Shown piece by piece: positions 4,877 through 61,400 of a DNA stretch of 64,000 nt. The stretch lies in the NCBI GenBank assembly GCA_018335015.1, contig JAGXKX010000001.1, positions 54,028-118,027 of the forward strand, read 5' to 3'. The notes beneath the pieces were generated by a model. The model saw only the letters and a list, made by a program, of their open reading frames with translations, was not told the origin of the DNA and searched no databases. Position numbers and translations under genes: made by a program. Origin of the DNA: Candidatus Bipolaricaulota bacterium (lineage in GTDB: Bacteria > Bipolaricaulota > Bipolaricaulia > M55B111). Numbering within the stretch: the first letter of the stretch is position 1; every line of letters starts with the position of its first letter.

Positions 4877-4897
4877 AATTAGTAAACCATCGCCCGG

Positions 4898-18428: not shown

Positions 18429-18550
18429 GGTAGTTTATTTTAGAAAAATTCTGGGATTTGTAAATACCCTGGCCCAGCTGAACCGAAGTTTACACTTCCC
18501 TCTGACCTGAAACGTTATCGGCTAGATTGAGCTTAGTTTTTACCACCTCC

Positions 18551-18750
18551 CAGTTCTTTCACCATCGTCGAACGTCATTATTTTGTCCTCATGTGCCTCT
18601 TACCCCTTACCTGGCAACTGATTTAACCTTAAAATCCTACCAGTAGACGAAATCCCGGCAGCCAGGTAAGGGGCAAGAGGCCTGAACTGAAGATATAGTT
18701 ATCGCAATATGAGATACCACTCGCTTACGAATAGTGATGAAGGAACTGGG
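18551..18750. repeat. MITE-like element copy B (200 bp)
   Basis: The TIRs are CAGTTCTTTCACC (18551-18563) and GTGATGAAGGAACTGGG (18734-18750). The hairpin spans 18596-18680 (CCTCTTACCCC-TTACCTGGC ... GCCAGGTAA-GGGGCAAGAGG). It sits in the divergent pld/wecB promoter region. Confidence 0.7.
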
Positions 18751-18765
18751 CTCCTGTTATTAACA

Positions 18766-18789
18766 CCAGATACTATACCAGATACTATA
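18766..18789. repeat. 12-bp tandem duplication CCAGATACTATA x2
   Basis: Read directly from the sequence. Confidence 0.8.
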
Positions 18790-18900
18790 GAAGAGAATCC
18801 AGTGTAAAACTAATTTTCAGCTTTTACGGGTAAAACTCTACACTTTCTTAACACCGCCCGTTGCACAAGAACCCCTAATCGAATAGCCTTTACGACTGCG

Positions 18901-31974: not shown

Positions 31975-32979
31975 GTGACCTCTATAACCCCTATAGCGGG
32001 ATTGATCTCCCTCTCAGTTAGCTTCGTAGCGGCTCGGCTATTGATAATTTCGATGAATTCCCGGGGAATTGGACAATACATAAGAAGCTGGGGTCCAAAA
32101 GTTCACGAACACAAGAGCGGAACTCCAACGATGGGCGGCCTGGCCATGCTCGCGGGTCTCGGTTCGGCACTAATCTACCTCTGGTTAAGTTTCCCGGGAG
32201 GGAGAAGTAACCTTATTCTGTTTGCGGTCGGGACCTTCGGGTTCGGAACTATTGGTATCCTGGACGACGTCCTGAGTCTGGTCAAGGGAAAAGCGGAGGG
32301 CCTCTCACCAGGCGGGAAGATAATTGCTCAGTTAGCGGTGGCCGTGGTTTTTCTCGTTCTCGTATTCCGGCTTTTAGACCAACCAAATCAATTGTCGTTG
32401 CCGTTTACTTCGACAGTTGTGACCATTGCCCCCGTCTACTACTGGATTCTTGTAGTTTTCATTTTCCTGAGCACGGTAAACGCCGTCAACCTTACTGACG
32501 GTATGGACGGACTGGCCGCGGGAGCAAGTTTTATATCGATCTCGGCTTTCGCCTTGATCGGGGGCGGGGGAATTATACCGTTTATCACGGGAGCTCTCGC
32601 CGCCATTATCGGTTTTCTCTGGTATAACTCATTCCCGGCTGAAATCTTTATGGGAGATACTGGATCCTTTGCTCTGGGGGGGTTTATCGGGTCCGCCGCT
32701 GTACTTGCCCGAGGCGAGGTCTTTCTACCCCTCCTCGGCGGGCTATTCGTTTTCGAAACTTTGTCCGTCCTGATCCAGGTCGGTTACTACAAGACAACGG
32801 GGAACAGGGTATTCAAAATAAGCCCGCTCCACCACCACTTCGAGTCAGCAGAGGGAGTTGATTACGATTTCTTTCTCCCAGAGGTTGCGTGGAGCGAACC
32901 AAAAGTCACCGCCAGGTTATTGATAAGCCATCTGGTCTTAGCGGGTATCGGATTGGCTGGCTTTTTCATTTGGGGATGA
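31975..32979 (+). CDS. mraY: phospho-N-acetylmuramoyl-pentapeptide transferase family (MraY/WecA-like polyprenyl-phosphate sugar-1-phosphate transferase)
   Basis: About 10 TM segments are predicted. The motifs NAVNLTDGMDGLAAG, GTPTMGG and LHHHFE are present. Confidence 0.75.
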   Translation: MTSITPIAGLISLSVSFVAARLLIISMNSRGIGQYIRSWGPKVHEHKSGTPTMGGLAMLAGLGSALIYLWLSFPGGRSNLILFAVGTFGFGTIGILDDVLSLVKGKAEGLSPGGKIIAQLAVAVVFLVLVFRLLDQPNQLSLPFTSTVVTIAPVYYWILVVFIFLSTVNAVNLTDGMDGLAAGASFISISAFALIGGGGIIPFITGALAAIIGFLWYNSFPAEIFMGDTGSFALGGFIGSAAVLARGEVFLPLLGGLFVFETLSVLIQVGYYKTTGNRVFKISPLHHHFESAEGVDYDFFLPEVAWSEPKVTARLLISHLVLAGIGLAGFFIWG

Positions 32980-33217: not shown

Positions 33218-33560
33218 AAAAAAGACGAAGGGGAAGTTAAGCCGGATCCTGTGTTAGGAAGCCATCTATCTCAGCAGCCTACCCGAAGGTTACGGGAGCG
33301 GGCAGCTCCATACCTCCCTATTTGGCTTTACTCCGGTTGGGGTTTACCCTGCCTTCCGCCTCACGGCTGAAGCGGTGAGCTCTTACCTCACCGTTGCACC
33401 CTCTCCCAGCACTCAATTAAGTGCTGGGTGGTCTATTTTCTGTGGCACTTTCCAGCCGTCGCCGGCTCTGGTCTTCGGCAGTGAAACATCGACCAGCAAC
33501 CTGCCCTGCGGAGTCCGGACTTTCCTCGGCCGTAAGGCCGCGGCTTCCTCTTCCCCTTCG
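33218..33560 (-). ncRNA. rnpB: RNase P RNA (type A)
   Basis: The minus-strand transcript contains GAGGAAAGUCCGGACUCCGCAGGGCAGG (P4), ACAGAAAAUAGACCACC, GGUAAGAGCUCACCG, GGUAAACCCCAACCGGAGUAAAGCCAAAUAGGG, GGGUAGGCUGCUGAGA and ACAGGAUCCGGCUUAAC. The P1 helix is formed by GUCGAAGGGGAAG and CUUCCCCUUCGUC, followed by UUUUUU. The track ORF 33375..33602 inside it is spurious. Confidence 0.85.
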
Positions 33561-33661: not shown

Positions 33662-34069
33662 ATGAAGTATAAAACGATCGGCAATAAGTTGTTCGTCAGA
33701 CTGGAGAAAGGTGAAGAGGTAGTCTCCAAACTCGAACAAATTCTGGAAGAAGAAGGGGTCCATGCGGGTTCTTTCCAGGGGATAGGGGCCGTGTCGAAGG
33801 CAACTTTAGGACATTATTCCCTGGAATCAAAGGACTACAGCGAGAAGGAACTGGACCAGCCCCTCGAGATAGTATCGCTCCAGGGAACCGTATCCGGAGA
33901 AGGAGTTCACCCTCACGTCTGCCTGGGAACAAAAGACATGAAAACGTACGGAGGCCACCTTGTAGAAGCAGTCGTGGCCGCGACTTGCGAAATTATCGTT
34001 AAACCCGAGCCTGGTGGCCTCGACCGTTACTACGACGAGGAAATCGGTCTGGATCTCCTCGAACTCTAG
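33662..34069 (+). CDS. PPC/DUF296-domain protein
   Basis: The start was moved to Met18 (MKYKTIGN), which has AGGAGG 6 nt upstream. The motif HPHVCLGTKDMKTYGGHL is typical of the DUF296 family. Confidence 0.6.
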   Translation: MKYKTIGNKLFVRLEKGEEVVSKLEQILEEEGVHAGSFQGIGAVSKATLGHYSLESKDYSEKELDQPLEIVSLQGTVSGEGVHPHVCLGTKDMKTYGGHLVEAVVAATCEIIVKPEPGGLDRYYDEEIGLDLLEL

Positions 34070-34923
34070 CTTCTTTTTTTTCGATTCTCTCGCAACCGGA
34101 AGAAACCAAGTCCGATTACCACCATTATTCCGAGCAATCCGCAAGCGACAACTAGAAGGGCACTCCGAAAAGCCCATTCGAAATTAATTGAAGGATCCGA
34201 GGGAGACGCCAGCAGAACCTCGAAGGGTTTTCGCAGCGCTCCGACCATAAGTCCGATCAGAAAGCCAAGGGTTTCCGAGCGCCAGCTATCGAGGGCAAAC
34301 GACAGAACTCGAGAAAAAGCAACTATCCCCAGCCCGGCCCCGAGGGCAAAAACTAATAACGTAGGGAGGCTTGAGGGCAGTTCCCCGACTGAATCCAGGA
34401 TGTATTCGTACTGTCCCAGTAGCAAAAGTATGAATGCTCCGGATATCCCGGGTAGTATCATGGCGCAAATCGCTATAGCTCCAGCAGCCAAAATAACCGG
34501 GAGACCGTGGCCAAAACTCCCGGCCGAAACTCCAATTATCATAACCGCAGATAAAGCACCGATTATACTGGTTGCAGCGGACGAAGGCTTTATTTCCGGA
34601 ACTTCAAAATACAACAATCCGGCCGAAGCAAGTATCAGTCCGAAAAAGAAGGAATACGTGTAGGGCGGAAAATGCTCCAGTAAATATCTTACAAACTGTG
34701 ACCCCACGAGCAGGGCTATTCCGATCCCGAGGCCAAGAGGGATCAGAAAACTGTAGTTGATGTTCTTAAGTCCGTTTCGGAACTCTTCTAGCTTTCCCCT
34801 CAGAAGGTCCAGGAGGATCCCGGGCTTAAAAGATTCCAAGGCTAAAATCAGATCTTCGTAAATTCCCGTAATGAGGGCCATCGTTCCCCCGGACACGCCG
34901 GGAATCACGTCGGCAAACCCCAT
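34066..34923 (-). CDS. DUF368-family polytopic membrane protein
   Basis: The start is set at Met37 of the track ORF (MGFADVIPGVSGGTMALITGIYED is the family's conserved N-terminus). Multiple TM segments are predicted. Confidence 0.7.
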   Translation of the reverse strand: MGFADVIPGVSGGTMALITGIYEDLILALESFKPGILLDLLRGKLEEFRNGLKNINYSFLIPLGLGIGIALLVGSQFVRYLLEHFPPYTYSFFFGLILASAGLLYFEVPEIKPSSAATSIIGALSAVMIIGVSAGSFGHGLPVILAAGAIAICAMILPGISGAFILLLLGQYEYILDSVGELPSSLPTLLVFALGAGLGIVAFSRVLSFALDSWRSETLGFLIGLMVGALRKPFEVLLASPSDPSINFEWAFRSALLVVACGLLGIMVVIGLGFFRLRENRKKRS

Positions 34924-35083
34924 TACAACCCCTTTCAGAAACAAAATCGCTTTAGTTCTCAAATATTTCAAGGTTATCGCTTTTTCTCCAGTAGTTAGAG
35001 TTAGCCTTCCTAATCCGGAGACCACTACCACTCGGCTCTTTTACTGATGCCGTGCCAATTCTCCGGTCTTATCTGCTCCGGCG

Positions 35084-43495: not shown

Positions 43496-45259
43496 TTAGT
43501 CTTTGTCTGCTCCGTTGACACGCAATCCGAGTTCGTTCAGCTGTTCCTCGGAAACCTCCATTGGTGCCCCGGTTAACGGGGACTGAGCCATACCGGTTTT
43601 AGGGAAGGCTATTACGTCCCTGATACTGTCTTCTCCAGCCAGCAACATTGCCAGCCTATCCAGCCCAAGTGCTATTCCTCCATGGGGCGGGGCTCCGTAA
43701 TTTAGGGCTTCCAGGAAGAACCCAAACTTATCCTGGGCGTCCTCACGTGAAATGCCAAGAACGTCGAAGACGTTCTGCTGCAGGTCCCGGTCGTGAATTC
43801 TTATGCTTCCTCCACCCAGCTCTATTCCGTTTAACACCAGGTCGTAGGCTTTTGCATCCACTTCGAGAGGGTTTTTGCTGAGCTTTTCCACGTCTTCATC
43901 TCTCGGCGAGGTAAACGGATGATGCTCCGAAGTGAGGTTCCCGGCGTCATCAGTACCAAATAGTGGAAACCGCCTTACCCAGGTAAATTTCCACCTGTCC
44001 TGCGGTATCATATTGTTCTGTTTTGCCAGCTTCAACCGTAGCCCTCCCAGTACTTCGTTTACCGTCTCTCGGGTGTCAGCTACTATGAAAACTAGATCGC
44101 CGGGGTTCGCCTCGAGCTTATCCAATATAGATTCCTCGGTTTCTCCCGTCAGGTGAGACGTAAACTGACCGTCCAGACCGTCCTCGGTGACGTCCGCCCA
44201 GAGGAGTCCTTTGGCTCCGAGTTCTTTGACGTAATCCTCGAGAGAGTCAAACTGGGATCGGTTGTATTCCTTCGGTGAACTGAGGCAAAGACCTTTCACG
44301 GCGCCTCCGTCGGCAACCGTCCCGGAGAAAATATTAAAGTTTGAATCCTCAACTACCGGGGAGAGATCGACCAGCTCCAGCCCGAACCTCAGGTCGGGTC
44401 TGTCGGAGCCGTAGCGATTCATCGCCTCTTCGTAAGTCATTCGACGCAGGGGAAGCTCCAATTCGAGGTCCAGTACCTCGTCAAATACCCGTTTTACCAT
44501 ACCTTCAGTAACATCAACCACGTCCTCTTCATCTACGAATGACATTTCCAGATCAAGTTGCGTAAATTCCGGCTGTCTATCTGCCCTGAGGTCCTCGTCC
44601 CGGAAACATTTAACTATCTGGAAGTACTTTTCGAACCCGCCGATCATAAAAAGCTGTTTGAATAGCTGGGGTGACTGAGGCAGAGCGTAGAACTTGCCGT
44701 TGTGCAACCGTGAAGGAACGAGAAAGTCACGGGCGCCCTCCGGAGTACTTTTCGTAAGGACGGGTGTCTCTATTTCCCAGAACCCTTCTTCGTCGAAATA
44801 GTCCCTAATTATTTTAAAAGCCCTGTGCCTTAGCTGGATGTTGCTCTTCATTCGATCCCTTCGGAGATCGAGGTAACGATACTTCAACCGGGTATTCTCG
44901 TTTACTTCCAGGTCATCGGCGGGCGAAAAAGGCAGGTTTTCCGAGGAGTTCAGGACTTCCATCTCCTCTACTTCCAGCTCAATCGTCCCGGTATCCAGCT
45001 TGGGATTGACATTGTCCTCGCCGCGCTCGATAATCGTCCCTTCTACTTTTACCACGTCTTCCCTGTTCAGGTCTCCGGCACGGTCGTGGAGGTCTGCCCG
45101 TTCCGGAGTGAACAACAACTGAACTATACCCGATCTATCGCGAAGGTCAATAAAGAGCAAGCCTCCTAAATCCCGTCTATTTGTAACCCAGCCGGCAAGT
45201 GTCAACGATTCGCCCAGATTTTCTTCGCTCAGTTCACCACAACGGTTAGTCCTTAACAA
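43496..45259 (-). CDS. aspS: aspartate-tRNA ligase, bacterial-type (587 aa)
   Basis: Class II motifs are present (FRDEDLRADRQPEFTQLD, GGIALGLDRLAMLLAG), together with an N-terminal OB anticodon-binding domain. Confidence 0.9.
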   Translation of the reverse strand: MLRTNRCGELSEENLGESLTLAGWVTNRRDLGGLLFIDLRDRSGIVQLLFTPERADLHDRAGDLNREDVVKVEGTIIERGEDNVNPKLDTGTIELEVEEMEVLNSSENLPFSPADDLEVNENTRLKYRYLDLRRDRMKSNIQLRHRAFKIIRDYFDEEGFWEIETPVLTKSTPEGARDFLVPSRLHNGKFYALPQSPQLFKQLFMIGGFEKYFQIVKCFRDEDLRADRQPEFTQLDLEMSFVDEEDVVDVTEGMVKRVFDEVLDLELELPLRRMTYEEAMNRYGSDRPDLRFGLELVDLSPVVEDSNFNIFSGTVADGGAVKGLCLSSPKEYNRSQFDSLEDYVKELGAKGLLWADVTEDGLDGQFTSHLTGETEESILDKLEANPGDLVFIVADTRETVNEVLGGLRLKLAKQNNMIPQDRWKFTWVRRFPLFGTDDAGNLTSEHHPFTSPRDEDVEKLSKNPLEVDAKAYDLVLNGIELGGGSIRIHDRDLQQNVFDVLGISREDAQDKFGFFLEALNYGAPPHGGIALGLDRLAMLLAGEDSIRDVIAFPKTGMAQSPLTGAPMEVSEEQLNELGLRVNGADKD

Positions 45260-45369
45260 GTCACGATCATCCTCCGAAAATATTTGATGTTTCGAAAGTT
45301 ATAGGGGATATGCTTTTATATAACAAACAATAACCCGAGAAATATTCACATCGGCGAGGAAAGGCGTCC

Positions 45370-47655
45370 CTAATCGGATTCCTCGGATTCCGGCTTAAAC
45401 CCGATATCGCCCGACTTCTCCTTCAGTCGTTTTTCGATGTTCTCGTAACGCTTCCTCGAGTCAGAAGTCACCGAAGCTGGCGTTTCGTCAATCGCCGCCA
45501 GGAAGTGATCCATGCGAACAAACTGCGAGTCGATATCCTCGCGCAGAGCGAACCTGCCGGCCTTTTTGCATACCGCGGCGATATCGGCGCCGGTGAAATT
45601 ATCTGAGAGGTTAGCCAGCTTTTCGAGGTCTATCCCTGGCTCGAGGTTCATCTCTTCCGTATGAACCCTGTATATCTTCAACCGAGCTTCTTCATCGGGC
45701 ACGGGAACGTGGATGAGTTCGTCAAACCTTCCCGGACGCAGAAGAGCCGAATCAACCATGTCGGGTCTGTTTGTTGCTCCTACCACGACGACTCCCTGTA
45801 ACTCCTCCAGACCATCCATTTCGGAAAGCAGCTGGTTGACTATTCGCTCTGTTGCCCTCGGCTCGCCAGCCCCACCTCCTCTTTCAGGAGCCAGAGCATC
45901 CAGCTCGTCGAGAAATATGATCGCCGGGGAAACCTGACGGGCCTTGTCGAAGACCTCGGCAATTCTCTGTTCTGATTCCCCGTACCATTTTGAGAGCAAA
46001 TCGCTCCCTTTGGCCGTAATAAAGTTAGAGTTACTTTCGTTGGCAATCGCCTTGGCCATAAGCGTCTTCCCGGTTCCGGGAGGACCGTACAGCAGGACAC
46101 CTCTCGGGGGTTGTATCCCTATCCTCCGGAAGGAATCCGGATTCTTTAGCGGTAACTCGATTATTTCGGACATCGTCTGTTTTATCTCCTCGAGCCCGCC
46201 TACATCTTCCCAGCTCACCTGGGGCACGTCGGCGAGTACTTCCCTCAGGGCGCTCGGCTCTATACCCTTATAGGCGTCGAACATGTCCTCCCTGGTAACT
46301 TCCAGCTCCTCCAGTTTCTCAGCCGGAATCGACTCTTCCTCAAGATTCAGTTCCGGCAACAGTCGCCGAAGAGCGTTCATTGCCGATTCCCGAGCCAGTG
46401 CTTCGATATCGGACCCGGTAAACCCGTAAGTGAGTTCGATAAACTCGTCCAGGTCTAGGTCCTCGGCCAGCGGCATCCCTCGAGTGTGTATCATGAATAT
46501 TTCCTTTCGCCCCTCCGTATCGGGTACCCCTACCATGATCTCCCGATCGAACCTGCCGGGTCGACGCAACGCCTCATCTACCGCGTCCACTCTATTTGTA
46601 GCGGCAATTACGACGACGTTCTCCCGGGGTTTCAATCCGTCCATCAGGGCCAGAAGCTGGGCAACAACCCTCCGCTCAACTTCACCGGAGGCCTCTTCCC
46701 GTTTGACCCCCAGGGAATCAAGTTCATCTATGAAAATTATTGCCGGAGCGTTATCCGAAGCTTCTTCGAAAACCTCCCTGAGCTGTTGCTCCGATTCTCC
46801 GTAGTACTTGCTCATTATCTCGGGCCCGTTGATCGAGGTAAAGTGAGCATCAGTTTCGTTCGCAACTGCCTTGGCTAGTAGGGTCTTTCCGGTTCCCGGA
46901 GGCCCGTGGAGAAGTACTCCTTTGGGCGGGTCTATCCCCAGCCTGTCAAACAGTTCGGGATTTTTCAGTGGCAGTTCGACCATTTCACGTATCCTCTGTA
47001 GGACGTCGTCGAGCCCGCCGATATCCTCGTAGGTAACTCCAACGTACTTTTCGCCTTCCTCGACCTCTTTGTATTCCGGCTTCAGCTCGATCTGGGTCTT
47101 ATTGGTAACCTTGACGATTCCTCTGGGGTTCGTACCAAGTACCTGTAATCGGATCTCCCCCAGACCGAAGCTACTCGAGTCGAGAAAATCCTGAAAGAAA
47201 CTTTCCGACATCAAGTCGGAACCGAACGGGCTTTTCGAACGCCTTATAGTCGTAGAAAGAACGTCCCCTGTCGTCAATGGCCGCCCGCCAAGAACCTGCT
47301 TAAGGCTCTGACCGCTCCCCCGGAGCCTCAGATTATCGGAGGCCGGACCGATAGTCACTTTTTTGGCTTCCTTCACGTCGGCCTTTCCGATCCTGACCTG
47401 GTCCCCGATGCTAGTGCCGGCATTATTCCTCATCAAACCGTCGATTCGGATAATATTCAGTCCCTTGTCCTGAGAGTAGCCCTCCACGGCTATACCGGCA
47501 GTCTTGTCGTTTCCTTCTATCTCAATAATATCTCCCCGGGAAATTCCCAGCTTTTTCATGGTATCAGTACTAATCCTGGCAACCCCTTTACCGAAATCCT
47601 GCTGGTTGGCTCCTGCCACCTTTAGTTCCATCTCTTTTTTTGGGCTATCGGACAT
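45370..47655 (-). CDS. CDC48/VCP-like AAA+ ATPase with two AAA domains
   Basis: An N-terminal CDC48-like domain is followed by two Walker A motifs (GPPGTGKT at both D1 and D2) and second-region-of-homology arginines. It is 761 aa. Confidence 0.9.
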
Positions 47656-47958
47656 AATTTCACCTCGTAACTGGTATTAAAAAAATCATTTATATATCTA
47701 GATTTTTCGTACTTCATTATTATCGGAATCGAGACTAATATAGGAAGAAAGTATTCTAAGCAATTAATGCACTTAGAGTACCGGCAAATTATATATATTA
47801 ACCAAATAGGGCTCAAGACGAACTATTTTTGCAACCCGTCGCAACTCTCACTTCTTACTAATAAAAACCCTCTAAAACTCATTTTTCGGGCACGATTTTT
47901 ACTTTTTTGCCTTCCGGAGGCAACTAACTTATGATTACAATCCAGTTATCATCTAGAG

Positions 47959-48414
47959 GTGAACGAAATGAAAAGCGTACGCCAGCTCAAAGACATCCTT
48001 GGGTTAAATACCGTCCATCAGGCCCGCAACAGGATCAAGGCAGTAGAGGACGTGATTCAGCCGTACGTAAAGCGGGGAGAAAACAACGAGATCCTCGTCG
48101 GGGAGGAGGGAGTGACGATTTTAACGAAGTTGCAGGATTTGTACGAAAGTGGATTACTCCTATCCGAAGCGGCGGAAGTGGTTAGGTCGGATTACTTACC
48201 TGATGAGGAAGAGGACATTGATTCGGATTTTTATAGTTCTACATCAATCCCATCAAAAGCAAAATCAGAGGTAGATCTTATCGATTACCTCCTTGAGGAG
48301 CTCCAGTTTCAGCGAGAACTAATCCTCAACTTGGCTAGTTCCGGAGGCGAGGGAGGCACCGGGAATGAAAAGGGCGTCAATAATGAAGATAAATGGTGGC
48401 TGAAATGGATGTAA
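47959..48414 (+). CDS. hypothetical protein with N-terminal HTH-like segment and acidic linker
   Basis: It is 151 aa with a GTG start. It lies 10 nt upstream of the HD-domain gene, so the two probably form an operon. Confidence 0.4.
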   Translation: MNEMKSVRQLKDILGLNTVHQARNRIKAVEDVIQPYVKRGENNEILVGEEGVTILTKLQDLYESGLLLSEAAEVVRSDYLPDEEEDIDSDFYSSTSIPSKAKSEVDLIDYLLEELQFQRELILNLASSGGEGGTGNEKGVNNEDKWWLKWM

Positions 48415-48435
48415 TTAAATTAATTGGTGATACAG

Positions 48436-49212
48436 ATGGAATTTTCGGTTCCGCTTAAAGGCAATAAGAAACTGAAGACGGTCATCGACAAAATTCAGAA
48501 CCACGGCAGATTAAACGGCCTCTGGACAATTGCGAACGTAAACGCCGTAGATCGGCTGGCCATTAATGACCACGGTCCGGTGCACTCGAAAATCGTCGCC
48601 AATTCCGCCCTGAGAATGTTCCGATTGATCGAGAAAAGCGGCGTGAAATCGAACCTTGAAATAGATCACAACCTGACAAAAGAAGACGCGGAGATAGTCA
48701 TCATTCTTGCCGCCGCATTCCACGACCTGGGTCACGCCATACATCGGGTACATCACGAGGAGTTCGGCATAGGCCTTGCCGACTCGCTGGTCACCGATTT
48801 GCTGGATGACATATATAACGGCCACACGATGGGAATTATGGAGGGAGAAGTCCTGCATGCCTGCTACGCTCACGGCACGGAGCTGGAAACCCTGACCCTT
48901 GAAGCGGGCGTGGTAAAGGTGGCCGACGCTTTAGACATGGAACAGGGCCGGGCAAGGATCCCATTTAAAGAGGGAGAGCTAACGATACACTCAGTTTCCG
49001 CCACCGCTATAGAACAGGTCAGCGTGAGACGAGGCAGTAAAAAACCAGTTAAAATCGTCATAGAAATGTCAAACTCCGCAGGGATCTTCCAGCTGGATAA
49101 CCTGTTTAAACCAAAACTGGAACATTCAGGAATAAGAAAACACATAGAAGTTACCGTGGAAGTAGGAGAAGAAGACGCTGAAAAGAAGATAATCGAGGAT
49201 TATCAGTTCTGA
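48436..49212 (+). CDS. HD-domain metal-dependent phosphohydrolase
   Basis: The start was moved to Met5 (MEFSV). The His/Asp ligand pattern is HSKIV ... AAFHDLGHAIHRVHHEEFG ... D. Confidence 0.6.
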   Translation: MEFSVPLKGNKKLKTVIDKIQNHGRLNGLWTIANVNAVDRLAINDHGPVHSKIVANSALRMFRLIEKSGVKSNLEIDHNLTKEDAEIVIILAAAFHDLGHAIHRVHHEEFGIGLADSLVTDLLDDIYNGHTMGIMEGEVLHACYAHGTELETLTLEAGVVKVADALDMEQGRARIPFKEGELTIHSVSATAIEQVSVRRGSKKPVKIVIEMSNSAGIFQLDNLFKPKLEHSGIRKHIEVTVEVGEEDAEKKIIEDYQF

Positions 49213-49536
49213 TATTATTTTGGCGATTTTAGATTCCCAGTTATCGGACGTTTTCAAGTATATTTAACAAAAGGTATCTTATGTTAAAAATCTGACGAAC
49301 GTCCTTTTTCGAACTAACACTTGTAATTGCTCCTAAAAAAATATTAGTTAAGCTAACAAAGGCTTTAGCGGAGATCAAAGATTTGCAATTCATCTTAGAA
49401 GGTAAAAAGAGGAAGTCAAGTTAAGAGGATAAGGACAAAGTTATAAGTCATTTCTTTCTCCATGGTGGGAGAAAGAAAGAATTAGGTGGGAGTAGGATAA
49501 AAATGGAAAGAATAAACCCCAAAAAAGGGCAAAATC

Positions 49537-50160
49537 ATGAGTTTAGAACTGACACAGGAAGATTTCCTAACTGAGAGGCAAGTGAAGAGGTTGAAGAAGA
49601 CCCTCCGGGGGGCAGCAAGGGAAGGCAAGGAAGATGGCAAATATATCCCTGTGAGAGACTGGTGTATTTTGCACATCGCCCTTGACGCAGGTTTGAGGGT
49701 CTCCGAGATCCGTGACCTGAAAATTGGAGACCTGCTTATAGACCAGGGCGGTTCTTCCATAATAGTCAGGAGCGGCAAGGGGGACAAAAAGCGAGGAGTC
49801 TCTATCGGGGCCGATCTGAAGAGTCACCTCAAGGAATATATCGAGTGGAAGGAGGACCGTGGCCAGCCCACTGGAGACAACGACCTCTTATTCATCTCTC
49901 CCAGCGGAAAATCCGATAAGCTAAGTCGCCAGGCAATCTACCACATTTTCAAACGCTGGGCTGAACGGGCGGGTTTACCCGATAGATTCTCAATACATTC
50001 CTGTCGCCACACTTACGCATCCATGCTCTACAAATCGAGTGACTACAACCTCAGGCTTGTCCAGTCTCAACTCGGACACTCCTCCATCCAGACAACTCAG
50101 GTTTACGCAGACGTGCTGAACAAGGACGCCGAAAAAGCGGTCAACGACTTACCCCAATAA
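49537..50160 (+). CDS. tyrosine recombinase (phage-integrase family), catalytic domain only, 207 aa
   Basis: The catalytic residues R (GLRVSE), H-x-x-R (HSCRHTYAS) and Y (TQVYADV) are present. No N-terminal core-binding domain exists, and an in-frame stop lies 8 codons upstream of the ATG. Confidence 0.8.
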   Translation: MSLELTQEDFLTERQVKRLKKTLRGAAREGKEDGKYIPVRDWCILHIALDAGLRVSEIRDLKIGDLLIDQGGSSIIVRSGKGDKKRGVSIGADLKSHLKEYIEWKEDRGQPTGDNDLLFISPSGKSDKLSRQAIYHIFKRWAERAGLPDRFSIHSCRHTYASMLYKSSDYNLRLVQSQLGHSSIQTTQVYADVLNKDAEKAVNDLPQ

Positions 50161-50396
50161 AAACAATATAATCTCTAAAGGTGGCCTCAGACCGTAATTA
50201 GTCAACTACGGATGGACTATGACATGGTATAGTTTGGTTCCAAACAGATCCGTATACTAGCGTACGATACCCACAAGTATTGGCGCTTAACTAACGGCGC
50301 CCTTCCGGAGCAAGCCGTGAATCTTCCTCGTTATGTTTTGGTGACCATTAATGGTTTAAAACCTCACCCACGAAAAACGTGTCAAAACGGTTTAAT

Positions 50397-50551
50397 CACC
50401 GGAATTGTCTACGGAACCCAATCCAAAACACTATTCTTTAAACGTTAGTTCCAAGACCGATTAAACGACGAACATCAGGCCTGAACCGAGTCATGACTAG
50501 CCTGGGTAAATACGTAACATACAAATCTAAGTGACCGGTATTGTCTAGTAT
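50397..50551. repeat. imperfect direct repeats (ACCGGWATTGTCTASK ...TTAGTTCC..CGATT) inside an 840-bp AT-rich non-coding spacer
   Basis: CACCGGAATTGTCTACGG is at about 50397 and GACCGGTATTGTCTAGTA at about 50532. Both are followed by related TTAGTTCC-N-ACGATT segments. Confidence 0.4.
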
Positions 50552-51001
50552 TAATTAGTTCCGTACGATTCCTAATTAATCCCATACCAACCTCGACCAA
50601 ATACTTTTTCAATTAAAGTCTCTATTTAATTATATTCTCATGGGGATTATCACAAGATTTAGATTTTAAAATAGCTGGAAAAATGAGATTTATTGACGTT
50701 ATTATTTATAAATCCGATTTAAACCATATAATACCAGTTCGTTATTCATATCTGAGTTTTGGCTGATTTGTTGGTATCAAATAGGAAACGGTAGCTTTAA
50801 CCGGGGAAGGATAAACCACCTGTTGAATTCACAAGCTTGCTGTTCAATTCCCTTCCGATTTTCTTTTCAGCGGAAGATGACCTATACTTGCCTTAGTAAC
50901 CCAAGTAACAGGTTCTAGTTACAAACAAAAACTCCTCTTTGGGAGAAACTCACGGGTCTAAACTAACCTGAAAATGAGCTTTAATCGAAGGATGAGAAAT
51001 A

Positions 51002-52342
51002 ATGGAGAATCAAGAAAAATGTACGCAGGGTGAGAGGGTCCTTGTATTCGCCCCTCACAACGACGATGAGATACTGGCTGCAGGTGGCTTAATTCAAAGG
51101 TACGTAGAGTCCGACACCCAGGTTAAGGTTGCGGTAATAACAAACGGGGATGGCCAGATACGTAGACCGCCTTTCCTGCCTTTCCTCCGGCCCGATTTCG
51201 TCAAATTGGGTTACAAGCGTCAAAATGAGACTTTAGAGGCGATGAATTATCTTGGCCTGAGTAAAGAGGACGTTAAATTCTTCGGTTATCCCGATCGAGG
51301 GCTCAGCCACATGTGGACTAACCACTGGGACCGCAATGACCTTTATTACTCCAAGTATACCAAAACCAACCACACTCCGTACGATAACAGCTACAACGGT
51401 AAAGCTCCTTATTGTGGTTCGGCAGTTGCCGAAGACGTAAGGCATATACTGTTGGACCATAAACCGGATGTAATCTATCTACCACATCCAAACGACAGTC
51501 ACCCGGACCACTGGGCGACAAATGGTTTCGTCCTTTACGGGCTGGAACAACTGAAAAATGAGGGTTTCGACCAGCTTAAAAAAGTAACCATGCTGAGCTA
51601 TCTCGTCCACAGCGTGAAATTCCCATGGCCCCGAGGCAAGTATCTCGAATCTTCACTTTCCGAGCCAGAACACCTGGAAGGTCTTGACACAGAATGGGTT
51701 GGCGTCGAACTCGACATGAAAGAAAGATTGCGCAAGCTCCGGGCAATAGGAAAGTATCGAACTCAAACTCAGCTCATGCGAAAATACCTGATCAGTTTCG
51801 CCCGGGCAAACGAGCTATTCGGAATAGTTCCTAGCTTATCACTGAATAACTCTTTAGCTTACGGGGGAAAGCCAAACCTATCCCGGGACTTCATCCTGAA
51901 CGAAGAGGAAGACGAACCTTTACTATCGTACCTCAACCCGAAGCGAAGAAGCCGAATAGCCACGCTCAGGCGGTACCCAGACATGAAATCCGTTAGCCTG
52001 AACAGGAATTCTGAGTTCTTGAATCTTTCTATAGATTTCTTTAACAAGTACCGGCCGGGAAACGAAATTCAAATAACTCTCAAACCATTCGTCCAGGACG
52101 ATAAGCTTAGTGGAATTGGAGATTCTCATTCTTTCAGGTTCTTAAACCGAAGACTTTACCATAACCAATCTGAAGTCGAAAAGGGGAATGGGTACGACTT
52201 CGAAAGCGGAAGTAAATCTTACAGGTTATCCATCCCGCTGGAAAAGATAAACGACCCGAGCAAACTCATCCTCTCCATAACGCTTGCTCGGAAGGGCTAC
52301 CCGTTCGCCAGAAGCGCGAACAGGTTGGTCAAAATTCACTAA
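51002..52342 (+). CDS. PIG-L/LmbE-family N-acetylglucosaminyl deacetylase (MshB/BshB-like) with ~240-aa C-terminal domain of unknown function
   Basis: The motifs APHNDDEILAAGG and HPNDSHPDHWAT (the PIG-L zinc-site signature) are present. The C-terminal half has no recognisable family. Confidence 0.7.
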   Translation: MENQEKCTQGERVLVFAPHNDDEILAAGGLIQRYVESDTQVKVAVITNGDGQIRRPPFLPFLRPDFVKLGYKRQNETLEAMNYLGLSKEDVKFFGYPDRGLSHMWTNHWDRNDLYYSKYTKTNHTPYDNSYNGKAPYCGSAVAEDVRHILLDHKPDVIYLPHPNDSHPDHWATNGFVLYGLEQLKNEGFDQLKKVTMLSYLVHSVKFPWPRGKYLESSLSEPEHLEGLDTEWVGVELDMKERLRKLRAIGKYRTQTQLMRKYLISFARANELFGIVPSLSLNNSLAYGGKPNLSRDFILNEEEDEPLLSYLNPKRRSRIATLRRYPDMKSVSLNRNSEFLNLSIDFFNKYRPGNEIQITLKPFVQDDKLSGIGDSHSFRFLNRRLYHNQSEVEKGNGYDFESGSKSYRLSIPLEKINDPSKLILSITLARKGYPFARSANRLVKIH

Positions 52343-53130
52343 GTACTGTCATTGATGCGCTTCTTATAAATTATTGACCGAGAAGTTCTAAATTCATTAC
52401 CTTCTGCAACCAGTATCGGGTAACCAGTCTCCCGGGTAAACCCAAGCGACCGGAAAAACCTGCTGGCTCTCCTGTCGTTCTGCCTTACCCGAACGTGGAC
52501 CCCCCTTACTTCGGCCTCTCTTAACATGGAAATAAATTCATTCGCGAGTTCCGTTCCCAGCCCCTTCCCCCTCGAGCCTTCCGAGATGTTAATGTGAAAG
52601 TGGGCCGGATAGCCGGAAGGGGGAGCGTTCCTCAAACCTCCGTGGGTAGTCACGTAGATAAATGACCCGAGGTATCTAACCTCCTTCCAACCTATCTCTC
52701 TCCGGAACAGAGCCTTCACTATCGCCTTTGGTATCACTCTGGTGCTTTTTATCCACCTACAGCGGGATCCATTAAAACAACCGGAGAGATAGCCCACTAC
52801 CTGTCCCTCTACCTCGGCAATTAGAAGGTGTTCAGGCTCGTAATTCAGATAATAGTTGGTCAAAAGGTCTGCTACCAGTTTAAGGTCGGAACGGGGGTAT
52901 CCAGTGACAGTGGAAGTAGCAATTTTTCTTACCTTATCCCGATCTGTTTCTTTAAATTTCCTGATCTCCGGATTCACATCGTATACAAGTCTAGTTGTTT
53001 TACTAGTAATGGTCAATTTAATCAAAAAGACTGAACCTCTTTTAGATAAATCAAGCGGCCTAAATTCTTTTCCCGAACGAGGAGGTTTTTCCGGTAATTT
53101 TTCCGGACGGGTTTGCGAAACAGGAAACAA
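52339..53130 (-). CDS. GNAT-family N-acetyltransferase with N-terminal extension
   Basis: The acetyl-CoA-binding region is RGKGLGTELANEFISMLREAEVRGVHVRV. It is convergent with the PIG-L gene, with a 4-nt overlap. Confidence 0.7.
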   Translation of the reverse strand: MFPVSQTRPEKLPEKPPRSGKEFRPLDLSKRGSVFLIKLTITSKTTRLVYDVNPEIRKFKETDRDKVRKIATSTVTGYPRSDLKLVADLLTNYYLNYEPEHLLIAEVEGQVVGYLSGCFNGSRCRWIKSTRVIPKAIVKALFRREIGWKEVRYLGSFIYVTTHGGLRNAPPSGYPAHFHINISEGSRGKGLGTELANEFISMLREAEVRGVHVRVRQNDRRASRFFRSLGFTRETGYPILVAEGNEFRTSRSIIYKKRINDST

Positions 53131-53354
53131 GCGGCGTTTGTTGTCATCAAGCGGTTAAACTGATAAGGTAAACCTTAGGTGAATTTTCACTAAAGAGTCA
53201 GACGGAGTTTTGGGTAAGCAAGTGGTTCTACCTGGTAAAGGAAAATTAATTATCCATCACAATGGTTAGAATGGTAGGTGAATTGAAATGGTAGAAGTTT
53301 TGAAAAAGCTCTGGAGCGCTCTTTGACGAGGGCCCTTATAGAGGAGGCAGAAAT

Positions 53355-54746
53355 ATGAACTCCAATAAACAGAAGTCAAACTACGACGCGGTTGTGATAG
53401 GTTCCGGCCAGGGGGGCACTCCCCTTTCCCTCTACATGGCAGAACAAGGTCTTGAAACCGCGTTGATCGAGAGTAAACACGTCGGAGGAACGTGCGTAAA
53501 CGAGGGCTGCACGCCCACGAAGACGATGATCGCCAGCGCGCGAGTTGCGCATCTCGTCGGTCGCGCCGAGGAATACGGCGTCAACCCTGGAGGGGTCGAG
53601 GTTCAGCTTTCGAAGGTCCGAAAACGTAAAAGGGATATCGTAGACAGTTTCAGGAGAGGTAATTTGAATCGGATCGAAAAGAAGCCGGGGCTGGACTTGA
53701 TTCGGGGGGAGGCCATGTTTACCGAACCCTATACCATCGAAATATCCGGAGAGGGCGAAAAACACCAAACCGTAGAAGCAGAAAAGTTCTTTATCAACAC
53801 TGGGGCCAGGCCGTCAGCACCACCAATCGAGGGCCTCGATGAAGTTGACTATCTGGACTCGACCTCGATAATGGAACTGGGTGAGGTGCCTGAGAAACTA
53901 CTTATAATCGGCGGTGGGTATATAGGAGTCGAATTCGGCCAGGCATTTCGGAGGTTCGGAGCGGAAGTGACTATATTCCAGCGAAGTGCTCAGTTGTTGA
54001 CTCACGAGGATCAGGATGTTGCGGAGGAAGTCAGGGAAATACTGGAAGAGGACGGGGTCGAAGTCTTGCTTGACAAGGAAGTTCAAAAAGTTGAAAAGGT
54101 CACAGAGGGTATTAGAGTAATTGCAAACGGTTCCACGGCCGAAACAGGTAGCCATTTGCTGGTGGCCGCGGGGCGGGCTCCCAACACGGATAAACTCGGA
54201 CTGGAGAATACCGAGGTAGAAACTACCGACAGGGGGAATATAAGAGTCAACCAAAGACTGGAGACCGACCAGGACGGAGTCTACGCACTTGGAGACGTAA
54301 AAGGTGGGCCTGCTTTTACCCACATCTCATACGACGATTTTCGTGTTTTACGGGACAACTTATTTGAAAACGGAAACCGTTCCATAAAAGACCGGCCAGT
54401 GCCCTACACCGTATTCACAGACCCGCAACTAGGCCGGATTGGATTAACCGAGGAAGATGCCAGAAAAAATGGCTATGACGTCCAGGTTGCGACCATGCCC
54501 ATGGAAAGCGTCGCCCGGGCCCTGGAGGTAGATGAGACCAGAGGGATGATGAAAGTAGTCGTAGATAGAGAAACCGAAAAGATACTGGGAGCTGCAATTC
54601 TCGGTATCGAGGGCGGTGAAATAGCTTCCGCAATACAAATAGCAATGATGGGCGAACTTTCCTTCAGGAAGATGAAAGAAGGTGTCTTCGCGCACCCTAC
54701 GCTGGCGGAGTCGTTAAACAATTTATTTGCTCTGCTTGATGACTGA
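53355..54746 (+). CDS. class I pyridine-nucleotide disulfide oxidoreductase (Lpd/GR/Mtr-like flavoprotein disulfide reductase)
   Basis: The motifs are FAD GxGxxG (VIGSGQGG), redox CxxxxC (GGTCVNEGCTPTK), NAD GxGxxG (IIGGGYIGVEFG) and C-terminal HPT (FAHPTLAE). There is no C-terminal Cys pair, so it is not MerA. No E1/E2 genes are nearby. Confidence 0.8.
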   Translation: MNSNKQKSNYDAVVIGSGQGGTPLSLYMAEQGLETALIESKHVGGTCVNEGCTPTKTMIASARVAHLVGRAEEYGVNPGGVEVQLSKVRKRKRDIVDSFRRGNLNRIEKKPGLDLIRGEAMFTEPYTIEISGEGEKHQTVEAEKFFINTGARPSAPPIEGLDEVDYLDSTSIMELGEVPEKLLIIGGGYIGVEFGQAFRRFGAEVTIFQRSAQLLTHEDQDVAEEVREILEEDGVEVLLDKEVQKVEKVTEGIRVIANGSTAETGSHLLVAAGRAPNTDKLGLENTEVETTDRGNIRVNQRLETDQDGVYALGDVKGGPAFTHISYDDFRVLRDNLFENGNRSIKDRPVPYTVFTDPQLGRIGLTEEDARKNGYDVQVATMPMESVARALEVDETRGMMKVVVDRETEKILGAAILGIEGGEIASAIQIAMMGELSFRKMKEGVFAHPTLAESLNNLFALLDD

Positions 54747-54779
54747 GCCGATACTTGCTAAAATCCGAAAGTTAATACT

Positions 54780-55478
54780 ATGCATAATACTTGTAACGTC
54801 CTATGGCAATTAAAAGAATTCGACCTACTTTCCCAGTTAAACGAAGACCAGCTGGAAGAACTTGGATCCTGGGTAAAGGATCTCGAGTTCAACCAGGGTG
54901 AACTCATATATCTTCCCGGCGAGCCAAGTGAATCGGTATACTTCTTAAAACAGGGAAAGGTGAAGCTTTCCTACGTGGGACCAGCCGGCAAGGAATTTAC
55001 GGTTTCAATCCTGGACAAGGGGGAACCGTTTGGCGAGATGTCGGTAGTTGGCGAAGAGGATCGTAGCCTGAAGGCTGAAGCAATTGCCGACGTCGTACTC
55101 TGTTCCGTCTCAAAACGAGATTTTCTTCACTTTACCGAACAGAACCCGGAATTATCACTCAGCGTCGCCAAAAAGATCGGTCAACACAGGCGCGAGATTC
55201 AGAACAGCCTAGCGGATCTTCTATTCAAAGACGTTCCTTCCAGGTTGGCCACGACTCTCCACAGACTCGCGGTAGAGTACGGTGAAGAGGGTCGGAACGG
55301 TGTGAAAATAAAACCTTCATTAACTCACGAGGAGATTGCAAAATTAATTGGCTCCACCCGGGAAACCACCACCGCCAACCTAAACGAACTCGAATCCGAA
55401 GGGTTAATAGAAAAGGGAAGAGAAAATATATTAGTCAAAGACAAAGACGGATTAAAAGCAAGAGCCTCCAGAAATTAA
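54780..55478 (+). CDS. Crp/Fnr-family transcriptional regulator
   Basis: It has a cNMP-binding beta-roll and a C-terminal HTH (EEIAKLIGSTRETTTANLNELESEGLI). Confidence 0.8.
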   Translation: MHNTCNVLWQLKEFDLLSQLNEDQLEELGSWVKDLEFNQGELIYLPGEPSESVYFLKQGKVKLSYVGPAGKEFTVSILDKGEPFGEMSVVGEEDRSLKAEAIADVVLCSVSKRDFLHFTEQNPELSLSVAKKIGQHRREIQNSLADLLFKDVPSRLATTLHRLAVEYGEEGRNGVKIKPSLTHEEIAKLIGSTRETTTANLNELESEGLIEKGRENILVKDKDGLKARASRN

Positions 55479-56869: not shown

Positions 56870-57040
56870 ATGTCAGAAAAAATAAATGGGAAATGCCCGG
56901 TCCGCGGACAGAATATAAGAGTTACGGAGCTCGAATGCCCAAGCTGCCATACCCAGCTAAGCGGACAATTAAACTTAGGGAGGTTCTCTCGATTAAACCG
57001 AGGGCAACTCAAGGCTGATAGTAATTGCCGCTGCCATTAA
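56870..57040 (+). pseudogene. truncated DUF2089-like Zn-ribbon gene (56 codons; the family is normally ~110 aa with a C-terminal HTH)
   Basis: It encodes MSEKINGKCPVRGQNIRVTELECPSCHTQLSGQLNLGRFSRLNRGQL..., then diverges and stops. It overlaps MFS-like fragments. Confidence 0.4.
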
Positions 57041-60570: not shown

Positions 60571-60737
60571 CAAATTGAGTAATCGTTAAACCATCAAATT
60601 TTCAAAAACTTTTGATAGATATAGAAGGAAGAAAAACGAGGATACTTATCATTTGCAAGAATAAAAACTTTTAGTTAAAATAATTATAGTTTAGTAAACA
60701 TTTTTAATTCAAAAAATCAACTAGGAGGTTGATTAAA

Positions 60738-61400
60738 ATGAGCGAGCAGGAAAATATGCCTCTGATAGGGGATAAATTTCCGAACCTTGAAGTAAATACA
60801 AGCCACGGCACTTTCAAATTGCCTGATAAATACAAAGGGAAATGGTTCTTGCTTTTCTCTCATCCCGGGGACTTTACACCCGTCTGCACGACAGAATTCT
60901 ATGCATTCCAGAAGCGCTACGACCAATTCAAGGAACTAAATACCGAGCTGATAGGACTGAGCATTGACCAGGTCCACAGCCACTTAAAATGGACGGAATG
61001 GATTAAGGACAACCTGGGTGAAGAAATTGAGTTCCCGATAATCGCGGACGGGAGGGGGAAAGTAGCTGAAAAACTTGGGCTTCTCCACCACACAGGCGGT
61101 ACAGCAACCGTGAGAGCCGTTTTTGTTGTGGATCCGGAATCGAAAATAAGATCCATACTTTACTATCCCGCCGAGCTTGGCAGAAACATGGACGAATTCC
61201 TTAGAATAATCAAGGGATTCCAGAAAGCTGAAGAAGAGGGCGTGGCAATTCCGGCAAACTGGCCTGACAACGAATTGGTGGGTGACGACGTTATATCGCC
61301 CCCTGCTGGTAGCGAAGAAATGATCGAAAAGCGAAGAAAGCAGGAAGAAAGAGGCGAAATCGAGTGCTACGACTGGTGGCTCTGTCACAAAAAATCCTAG
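60738..61400 (+). CDS. peroxiredoxin (Prx6/1-Cys-like subfamily with C-terminal CxDWWxC)
   Basis: The ATG lies 9 nt after AGGAGG. The track ORF starts at TTG 60729. The peroxidatic Cys motif is FTPVCTTE. The C-terminal pair is [10 protein letters not shown]. Confidence 0.85.

Follow-up and report, generated by a model that had tools for sequence, protein, structure and literature searches.

Four consecutive genes in the genome of a Candidatus Bipolaricaulota bacterium (GenBank assembly GCA_018335015.1, contig JAGXKX010000001.1) encode a PIG-L/LmbE deacetylase, a GNAT acetyltransferase, a flavoprotein disulfide reductase and a Crp/Fnr regulator, and raise the question of whether they act together. 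They lie at positions 51002-55478 of the 64,000-nucleotide stretch of DNA analyzed here, referred to below as the window. The original prediction, made from the sequence alone, had joined the four genes into one candidate module for the modification of low-molecular-weight thiols or amino sugars. The neighbourhoods of their relatives give a different partition: the interval consists of two independent conserved gene sets, which adjoin each other in this Bipolaricaulota species only. Unit A is made up of the deacetylase and the acetyltransferase, unit B of the reductase, the regulator and an exported protein, p282. The independence of the two units is held with high confidence.

Two independent gene sets

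The genes and domains concerned are listed below. The four open reading frames (ORFs) lie where the original prediction had placed them, Pfam returned the expected classes (PIG-L, GNAT, Pyr_redox_2 with Pyr_redox_dim, cNMP_binding with HTH_Crp_2), and the first two genes are convergent and overlap by 4 nt (52339-52342), as originally noticed.

51002-52342, plus strand: PIG-L/LmbE deacetylase, 446 amino acids (aa), first gene of unit A; ORF and Pfam PF02585
51002-51826, plus strand: predicted LmbE catalytic core, residues 1-275 of the deacetylase; secondary structure of the model, its predicted local distance difference test (pLDDT) score and conserved residues
51983-52339, plus strand: predicted C-terminal β-sandwich, residues 328-446 of the deacetylase, immunoglobulin (Ig)-like/CBM9-like; AlphaFold model
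52339 to about 53025, minus strand: GNAT acetyltransferase, about 225-228 aa, second gene of unit A; mechanical ORF 52339-53130, 263 aa
53355-54746, plus strand: class-I flavoprotein disulfide reductase, 463 aa, RclA/MerA-like (PRK06370 group), first gene of unit B
54780-55478, plus strand: Crp/Fnr-family regulator, 232 aa, second gene of unit B; PF00027 and PF13545
55750-56598, plus strand: exported protein p282, 282 aa, N-terminal hydrophobic leader, third gene of unit B
49537-50160, plus strand: tyrosine recombinase, 207 aa, catalytic domain only, context gene; Pfam PF00589

All proteins of the interval are 100% identical to those of the Candidatus Bipolaricaulota metagenome-assembled genome GCA_036626135.1. 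Neighbourhoods were compared at several evolutionary distances, in loci of relatives denoted by L-numbers. The block AspRS-Cdc48-p151-HD-recombinase-PIG-L-GNAT is syntenic in L001, L009 and L004, in which the PIG-L protein is 87%, 75% and 53% identical, respectively, to that of the window. Downstream of the GNAT gene, L001 carries PfkB, PAS-HD and GGDEF genes, and L004 carries GlnA (glutamine synthetase). Nucleotide synteny with L001, the closest other species, spans positions 43515-53027, and ends just past the start of the GNAT gene.

The reductase, the Crp regulator and p282 recur as a block in the Bipolaricaulota loci L094, L096 and L097, flanked by GntR/OpuA betaine-transport genes on one side and MFS/GAPDH genes on the other. 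Crp adjoins the reductase in L094 and L096, and p282 keeps the same position after Crp in all three loci. The trio is well conserved in these relatives (reductase 67-71%, Crp 76-81%, p282 86-88% identical to the window proteins), and neither PIG-L nor GNAT genes were found beside it in the three loci. Of 88 loci encoding PIG-L relatives, none has a Crp homologue and two have a reductase homologue, which in both is only 29-31% identical and lies 6-7 kb away from PIG-L. Since the trio is found elsewhere without PIG-L and GNAT, and Crp and reductase homologues are absent or nearly absent from the 88 PIG-L loci, the interval is a juxtaposition of two units, and the four-gene module is abandoned. 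Of the conserved neighbourhood then expected, the PIG-L/GNAT half stands, and the reductase and Crp genes drop out. The best joint account, regarded as rather probable, is that of two independent units, unit A being an N-acetyl editing pair and unit B a redox unit.

A 48-aa stretch at 56870-57013 is 67% identical to the N-terminus of a DUF2089 protein encoded further downstream in L001. This suggests that it marks the point where synteny with L001 resumes after a variable segment bearing the trio.

The deacetylase/acetyltransferase pair in other genomes

Within the 88 PIG-L-selected loci, GNAT alone recurs as a neighbour; a GNAT homologue adjoins the PIG-L homologue in 15 of them, and the median distance is 160 nt. 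The reciprocal set comprised 80 metagenomic loci chosen solely by the GNAT motif YPAHxHIN. A PIG-L homologue is directly adjacent to the GNAT gene in 31 of these loci, typically across a gap of about 140 nt, and is again the only recurrent neighbour. An adjacent PIG-L gene is present in 13 of the 35 GNAT loci that extend 1.5 kb or more to each side, and in 21 of 49 GNAT clusters formed at 60% identity. The original prediction had made the association of the two genes hang on their co-occurrence in other genomes, and this is what was observed. Because PIG-L and GNAT are neighbours across phyla in both search directions, a functional link between them is supported. No description of a link between GNATs of this family, which resemble the acetyltransferase domain of O-GlcNAcase (OGA-AT-like; see below), and LmbE deacetylases was found in the literature searched.

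The pair spans at least six phyla. The two genes are convergent in halophilic Bipolaricaulota and in the cultured species Deinococcus radiodurans, and tandem, in either order, in another Bipolaricaulota lineage, Anaerolineae, Omnitrophota, Lentisphaerae, Sedimentisphaerales (Planctomycetota) and Clostridia. The D. radiodurans pair (WP_010889322.1, PIG-L, and WP_010889321.1, GNAT; L178 6824-8528, corresponding to NZ_OV024759.1 358916-360620) scores 213 and 131 bits, respectively, with the family profiles. Its PIG-L protein bears a hydrophobic segment at the N-terminus and lacks the β-sandwich; nagA is found three genes upstream of the pair, and a multidrug-resistance (MDR)-type MFS transporter gene downstream. 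In D. gobiensis, nanE and a BadF/G-type kinase-like gene lie near the GNAT gene.

In some PIG-L relatives a NodS-like N-methyltransferase gene takes the place of GNAT (L006/L061 9388-10080). Besides this methyltransferase, the other recurrent neighbours of GNAT-less PIG-L relatives encode DedA/VTT-domain membrane proteins and PLD/cardiolipin-synthase-like proteins; the loci with such alternative neighbours are L006/L061, L017, L028, L030, L076, L081, L082 and L087.

The deacetylase

Residues 14-177 of the 446-aa protein match PF02585 (E 5e-25; 88.9 bits vs. a gathering cut-off of 28.2). The motifs APHNDDE (H19, D21, D22, E23) and HPDH (H167-H170) are both present, and residues H19, D21, D22, E23, H162, D165, D169 and H170 are invariant among 31 homologues. 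Conservation extends past the Pfam model (H203, P208, P222, W232, K245, Q255, F266, R268, E271), the invariant residues continuing to E271, and homologues from Deinococcus and Thermus align with profile positions 12-278. In the AlphaFold model (pLDDT 84.4) the LmbE fold reaches to about residue 275, and is followed by a low-confidence or disordered linker (284-323) and by a β-sandwich (328-446). Foldseek recognizes the Rossmann-like LmbE fold in the model, with probability 1.00 to MshB, the diacetylchitobiose deacetylase Dac, Orf2*/Dbv21, BshB and TT1542 over 254-305 alignment columns, all of these relatives being 15-20% identical to the window protein. Pfam score, motifs and predicted fold place the protein in the LmbE/PIG-L superfamily, most likely as a metal-dependent de-N-acetylase. 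Assignment to one characterized LmbE subfamily was rejected, MshB, Dac, Orf2*, BshB and TT1542 being about equally distant.

The C-terminal half (residues about 210-446) had been regarded as an uncharacterised domain of 240 aa. Structure prediction resolves it into the rest of the LmbE fold, the linker and a generic Ig/CBM9-like β-sandwich of about 120 aa; an extra domain is thus predicted, but confined to residues 328-446. The sandwich matches no Pfam family, and has almost no sequence relatives outside its own protein family (7 matches among 1.84 billion representatives). Eight weak matches, at 34% identity, occur in P0362, a giant protein of 4438 aa with 11 IgGFc_binding (PF17517) repeats, which is uninformative on function. 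The sandwich was hence set aside as an informative sequence family.

Most relatives of the deacetylase (57 of 75, by a crude check of hydropathy and lipobox) feature an N-terminal hydrophobic anchor or signal, and lipobox-like motifs (LTGC, FQGC, LAGC) are found in several long members of the family (L098-L177, L009-L088). The window protein has no N-terminal leader. It is predicted to be cytoplasmic, because only 16 residues precede the APHNDDE motif, and the halophilic Bipolaricaulota clade to which it belongs appears to have lost the anchor or signal.

The acetyltransferase

The 263-aa ORF is inflated by an upstream TTG. Gene calls are 174, 225 and 228 aa long, those in GenBank for the identical gene being 174 or 228 aa; the length of orthologues is 210-228 aa. 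The Pfam match is limited to the C-terminal motifs. A profile of 12 orthologues, on the other hand, matches the Streptomyces sviceus enzyme SsAT (PDB 4BMH, 5e-35), the Oceanicola granulosus enzyme OgpAT (3ZJ0, 2e-22), and residues 715-897 of human OGA, which form its C-terminal pseudo-histone-acetyltransferase (pseudo-HAT) domain (2e-8). Profile positions 4-189 align with residues 58-241 of 4BMH, positions 2-199 with residues 3-199 of 3ZJ0. The similarity to the three proteins is thus full-length, and includes family-specific insertions. The motif YPAH-x-H-I-N/D, in which the proposed catalytic His is located, is shared with SsAT and OgpAT, as is the intact loop binding acetyl-coenzyme A (acetyl-CoA), here RGKGLG. 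H141, which is invariant, corresponds to OgpAT His135 (PMC3814719). The protein is best classified as a member of the O-GlcNAcase C-terminal acetyltransferase-like family of SsAT/OgpAT type, and should be catalytically competent, since it retains the acetyl-CoA loop and the His135 equivalent, as do OgpAT and SsAT, both thought to be active (PMC3814719, PMC3919268).

The comparison with MshD made in the original prediction does not hold: the protein is single-domain and OGA-AT-like, and its MshD score is 17.6 vs. 163. The acceptor has not been identified for any member of the SsAT/OgpAT family, and is probably a small polar molecule (PMC3814719, PMC3919268), the kind of ligand suited to the acceptor cavity of SsAT (PMC3919268). 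Members recurrently sit next to enzymes processing N-acetylglucosamine (GlcNAc). In Oceanicola the OgpAT gene adjoins a GH84 GlcNAcase gene (PMC3814719). The window protein differs in having an LmbE deacetylase as partner in place of a GH84 glycosidase, and is about 25-30% identical to the members of solved structure.

The reductase and its partners

The reductase has the features of class-I flavoprotein disulfide reductases: domains PF07992, PF00070 and PF02852, the redox pair in CVNEGC, and HPTLAE, both strings being present in the translation as originally reported. Among NCBIfam models NF004992 (PRK06370) scores best (503.6 bits), ahead of RclA (430), Har-type MerA (408), Lpd (405.8) and MerA (387); all scores are below the cut-offs. 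The best PDB matches are E. coli RclA (6KGY, 335 bits) and Lysinibacillus MerA (5X1Y, 302 bits); mycothione reductase (Mtr) scores 254 and glutathione reductase (GR) about 203. Structures 6KGY, 8AJJ and 8UUB are identified as in PMC11107202. By these scores the protein is an ordinary member of a large RclA/MerA-like clade, and not of GR/Mtr type. The family claim of the original prediction, which had likened it to mycothione or glutathione reductase, is right for the class-I architecture; the nearest relatives are RclA and MerA, and not Lpd, GR or Mtr.

The protein is 100% identical to an NCBI entry named mercuric reductase, and more than 60% identical to thousands of proteins bearing this name in several phyla. 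The name is a likely mis-annotation, as the cysteines that define MerA are missing. The window protein ends in ...HPTLAESLNNLFALLDD, without Cys and thus without the C-terminal Cys pair of MerA, has no NmerA domain or other N-terminal extension, and scores 387 vs. 454 with TIGR02053, below the curated cut-off as with every other model. A 17-residue insertion is common to MerA and the window reductase, and missing from RclA. The reductase is similar to E. coli RclA, S. pneumoniae Har, S. aureus MerA, all three hypothiocyanite (HOSCN) reductases, and to true MerA, in class-I architecture, CxxxxC pair and H-x4-E dyad. Scores with the RclA and Har models are nevertheless well below threshold (NF040477, 430 vs. 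740; NF041853, 408 vs. 650). HOSCN reductases typically carry two conserved active-site lysines (PMC11107202). The window reductase, which has Q18 and T21 at the positions of Har K13 and K16, differs in this from RclA, Har and S. aureus MerA, which weighs against a role of that type.

The score with the Lpd model TIGR01350 (405.8 vs. a cut-off of 408.8, short by 3 bits) also weakens any assignment of a substrate class. It raises an alternative, that the reductase is the dihydrolipoyl dehydrogenase of the organism (E3 or L-protein), with no part in stress or thiol functions. Many homologues bear the JGI name E3 component, and the organism lipoylates proteins, because two LplA/B-type lipoyl ligase/transferase genes, flanking a radical-SAM (LipA-like) gene, are present in the window (3998-6453, minus strand), 47 kb away. 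The PRK06370, RclA and Har-type MerA models (503.6, 430 and 408 bits) nonetheless outscore the Lpd model, RclA and MerA are the best PDB matches, and in four contexts no E2, GcvH, GcvP or GcvT gene is found beside the reductase, whose conserved partners are a Crp regulator and an exported protein. The alternative is thus improbable. In the original prediction, grouping with Lpd or MerA and co-occurrence with E2 genes were to count against the reductase as a thiol enzyme: its likeness to MerA goes part of the way, and no E2 neighbour was seen in the four contexts.

The regulator combines a cyclic-nucleotide-binding domain (PF00027, 70.7 bits) with a C-terminal helix-turn-helix (PF13545, 64.6 bits), as expected for the Crp/Fnr family. 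Its scores are below the cut-offs of all equivalog models, and its sequence has no FNR-type N-terminal Cys cluster. Protein p282, the most conserved of the trio (86-88%), has no match in Pfam, NCBIfam, PADLOC or PDB. Unit B would thus be a redox unit, in which an RclA/MerA-like, NAD(P)H-dependent reductase is associated with an exported protein and is probably controlled by the Crp/Fnr regulator. A link to defence systems was considered and dropped, PADLOC returning nothing except similarity of the Crp cyclic-nucleotide-binding domain to Pycsar/TIR effectors. A 1-Cys peroxiredoxin gene (AhpC-TSA and 1-cysPrx_C; 60729-61400, plus strand) lies 5 kb downstream of the trio, and is not linked to it in L094 or L096.

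Proposed function of the pair and alternatives

Unit A may be an N-acetyl editing pair acting on a hexosamine-bearing molecule, a reading to which slightly less than an even chance is given. It is proposed because the characterized relatives of the deacetylase act on GlcNAc glycosides, and because the GNAT family keeps GlcNAc-processing neighbours. Of the characterized structural relatives only GalB (5cgz), a hydratase, departs from this rule. The GlcNAc-linked neighbours of the GNAT family are PIG-L, GH84, nagA in D. radiodurans, and nanE with the BadF/G kinase-like gene in D. gobiensis; the NodS-like N-methyltransferase that replaces GNAT in some loci is another enzyme acting on a freed amine. 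The PIG-L protein, with the standard metal site of the superfamily (H19, D22, H170) and D21 as general base, would de-N-acetylate a glycoside or glycoconjugate of GlcNAc type (2-acetamido sugar), and its C-terminal Ig/CBM9-like sandwich probably helps to hold the glycan. The GNAT would transfer an acetyl or other acyl group from CoA to a small polar amine, for which the hexosamine amine made or consumed by the deacetylase is the most plausible candidate. Since in most lineages the deacetylase has a signal, anchor or lipobox and the GNAT has none, the ancestral division of labour may have placed acetylation in the cytoplasm and removal of the acetyl group at the membrane or beyond it, or have run the other way in salvage. 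In the clade of the window both enzymes are leaderless, and would be cytoplasmic.

Several observations weigh against N-acetyl editing by a dedicated pair. No third conserved gene, such as one for a glycosyltransferase or a transporter, accompanies the pair in either set of loci. The partner is missing from the vicinity in 49 of the 80 GNAT loci and in most PIG-L loci, and therefore each enzyme can work alone. Fusions that would tie the two functions were sought to no avail: the GNAT is fused to PIG-L or GH84 in none of its top 120 homologues, and no fusion of PIG-L with GNAT or GH84 occurs among the top 120 PIG-L homologues. In many lineages hydropathy and lipobox inspection, the only evidence on this point, predicts the two enzymes on opposite sides of the membrane, and a simple cycle on one pool of substrate is therefore ruled out there.

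The anchors, signals and lipoboxes of most PIG-L family members also fit a role in the envelope, in which unit A would de-N-acetylate a lipid- or polymer-linked GlcNAc or N-acetylgalactosamine, and then re-N-acylate it. Models would be the logic of LpxC/LpxD, or that proposed for DnpA (PA5002) with an as yet unknown transferase step, making GalN(L-Ala) in the Pseudomonas lipopolysaccharide (LPS) core. DnpA, a membrane protein of 473 aa from the PIG-L family, is encoded in the LPS core cluster and co-transcribed with PA5003 (PMC6048251, PMC10579960, PMC8005017), and has been proposed to de-N-acetylate an amino sugar before re-acylation (PMC10579960, PMC6048251). In size (about 470 aa), in the usual membrane association of its family, and in its pairing with an acyltransferase-fold protein, it parallels the deacetylase family described here. 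The CBM9/Ig-like domain, the DedA/VTT and PLD/cardiolipin-synthase-like genes adjoining other PIG-L relatives, and the presence in the window of a UDP-GlcNAc 2-epimerase, a PF00953 transferase and an undecaprenyl-phosphate translocase-like protein point the same way. Yet the window protein is itself devoid of leader and anchor and has no LPS-core context, the acceptor site of the GNAT family is described as a narrow tunnel for small polar molecules (PMC3919268, PMC3814719), PA5003, annotated as Mig-14-like (PMC13552734), belongs to a family other than the OGA-AT-like one, DnpA and PA5003 being likened by literature description only, and no envelope-biosynthesis gene recurs near PIG-L or GNAT. 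By analogy an envelope role is conceivable, but rather unlikely. NodB with NodA and NodS, and LpxC with LpxD, likewise pair a de-N-acetylase with an enzyme acting on the freed amine; their deacetylase folds (CE4, LpxC) are unrelated to that of the window protein, and the analogy is one of logic only. Less likely still is a reversible acetylation switch or detoxification pair whose target would be a non-sugar amine such as an antibiotic, polyamine or other small metabolite, with the LmbE protein as a general amidase. Chemistries other than GlcNAc deacetylation are found among the structural matches of the LmbE superfamily (Mca amidase, GalB hydratase), molecules of the size of serotonin fit the SsAT cavity (PMC3919268), an MDR-type MFS transporter gene adjoins the D. 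radiodurans pair, and an aminoglycoside phosphotransferase gene lies near a Streptomyces family member. Against this, R73/E76 and YPDRG are conserved in the family at what, by motif position, would be the sugar-binding positions of characterized LmbE enzymes, amino-sugar genes recur near family members (PMC3814719 for GH84), and no PADLOC or resistance model was matched beyond a weak ArsN1.

The thiol-cofactor model of the original prediction, in which all four genes would make and recycle a novel low-molecular-weight thiol under Crp control, with the PIG-L protein in the part of MshB/BshB, the GNAT in that of MshD and the reductase in that of mycothione reductase, is now highly improbable. 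It draws on a superficial match of enzyme classes by Pfam. MshB and MshD in the mycothiol pathway, and BshB in the bacillithiol pathway, belong to the same superfamilies (LmbE, GNAT) and have the same metal-binding/catalytic motif, and these pathways also link a GlcNAc-glycoside deacetylase to an acyl-CoA N-acyltransferase. All equivalog scores are, however, weak and far below the curated cut-offs. BshB2 scores 36.3 bits vs. 195, BshB1 33.2 vs. 182, MshB 22.4 vs. 224, Mca 18.3 vs. 277, MshD 17.6 vs. 163, and the mycothione reductase models 324 vs. 501 and 294 vs. 636. MshB and BshB are only 15-20% identical to the window deacetylase, which scores 5-10 times below their cut-offs, and MshD has two domains, the window GNAT one. 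The reductase, nearer RclA and MerA (335 and 302 bits) than Mtr (254) or GR (about 203), is absent around 86 of the 88 PIG-L loci, and Crp around all 88, the two traveling in a separate trio. No glycosyltransferase of MshA/BshA type, and no Cys ligase of MshC/BshC type, was found among the scanned window ORFs of at least 150 aa, four such ORFs being outside the scan. The statement that the window has no glycosyltransferase needs a correction, as a PF00953 (MraY/WecA-type) gene is located at 31975-32979; it is not MshA/BshA-like, and lies 19 kb away. The discovery of a new thiol cofactor system would have carried weight; nothing, however, points to such a pathway, which the neighbourhood data largely refute. 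Of the two roles originally offered, thiol or amino sugar, amino-sugar N-acetyl modification remains the best reading for PIG-L and GNAT.

The recombinase, the spacer and other genes of the window

The recombinase matches positions 94-261 of the 263 of the XerA model, and is 86-95% identical in L001, L009 and L004, in which the neighbouring PIG-L protein is 53-87% identical. As it is more conserved than PIG-L and syntenic in relatives, it is a strongly constrained core gene, and not the integrase of a mobile element. The island-like DNA seen beside the recombinase in the original prediction dissolves in the same comparison, the whole block from AspRS to GNAT being syntenic in the three relatives; the reasoning from integrase to island is to be corrected as a likely mis-annotation of a conserved core recombinase. 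No tRNA gene is found near the recombinase or unit A. The dip in guanine-plus-cytosine content (0.416 at 49001-51000) coincides with a gene-free, AT-rich spacer of about 840 bp (50161-51001) between the recombinase and PIG-L genes. The spacer is almost unconserved between species, a single match of 84 nt, 73% identical, being found in L098. The combination of this spacer with a 207-aa, FimB/E-sized recombinase was also considered as an invertible promoter switch, and rejected: no flanking inverted repeats were found, and five contigs of the same species are 99.5-99.9% collinear, without inversion.

The syntenic block is headed by a gene for a Cdc48-like double-AAA+ ATPase (45370-47655, minus strand; 761 aa, CDC48_N and CDC48_2) in this bacterial genome, 98% identical in L001 and 85% in L004. 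Genes related to envelope and amino sugars are found in the window at 17298-20028, 31975-32979 and 34066-35031, and encode a PLD/cardiolipin-synthase-like protein, a UDP-GlcNAc 2-epimerase, the PF00953 (MraY/WecA-type) transferase and an undecaprenyl-phosphate translocase-like protein. That the window is bacterial is confirmed by an RNase P RNA of bacterial class A at 33222-33560.

Implications for the acetyltransferase family

The GNAT of unit A belongs to a family that has solved structures (SsAT, OgpAT) and a pseudo-enzyme relative in humans, and whose acceptor was never identified; across many phyla its genes are repeatedly found next to that of a GlcNAc-type deacetylase. The pairing is a modest but testable lead on the substrate of OGA-AT-like acetyltransferases. 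It narrows the search to hexosamine-type amines, and as D. radiodurans is genetically tractable, it opens the way to biochemical and genetic tests. The broader proposal, that a widespread two-enzyme system absent from the literature searched determines how far a hexosamine-bearing metabolite or envelope glycoconjugate is N-acetylated, is doubtful at present. If true, the acceptor class of the bacterial OGA-AT-like acetyltransferases would be hexosamine amines, and, by extension, it would become clear what catalytic role this domain had ancestrally, before it gave rise to the pseudo-HAT of animal O-GlcNAcase.

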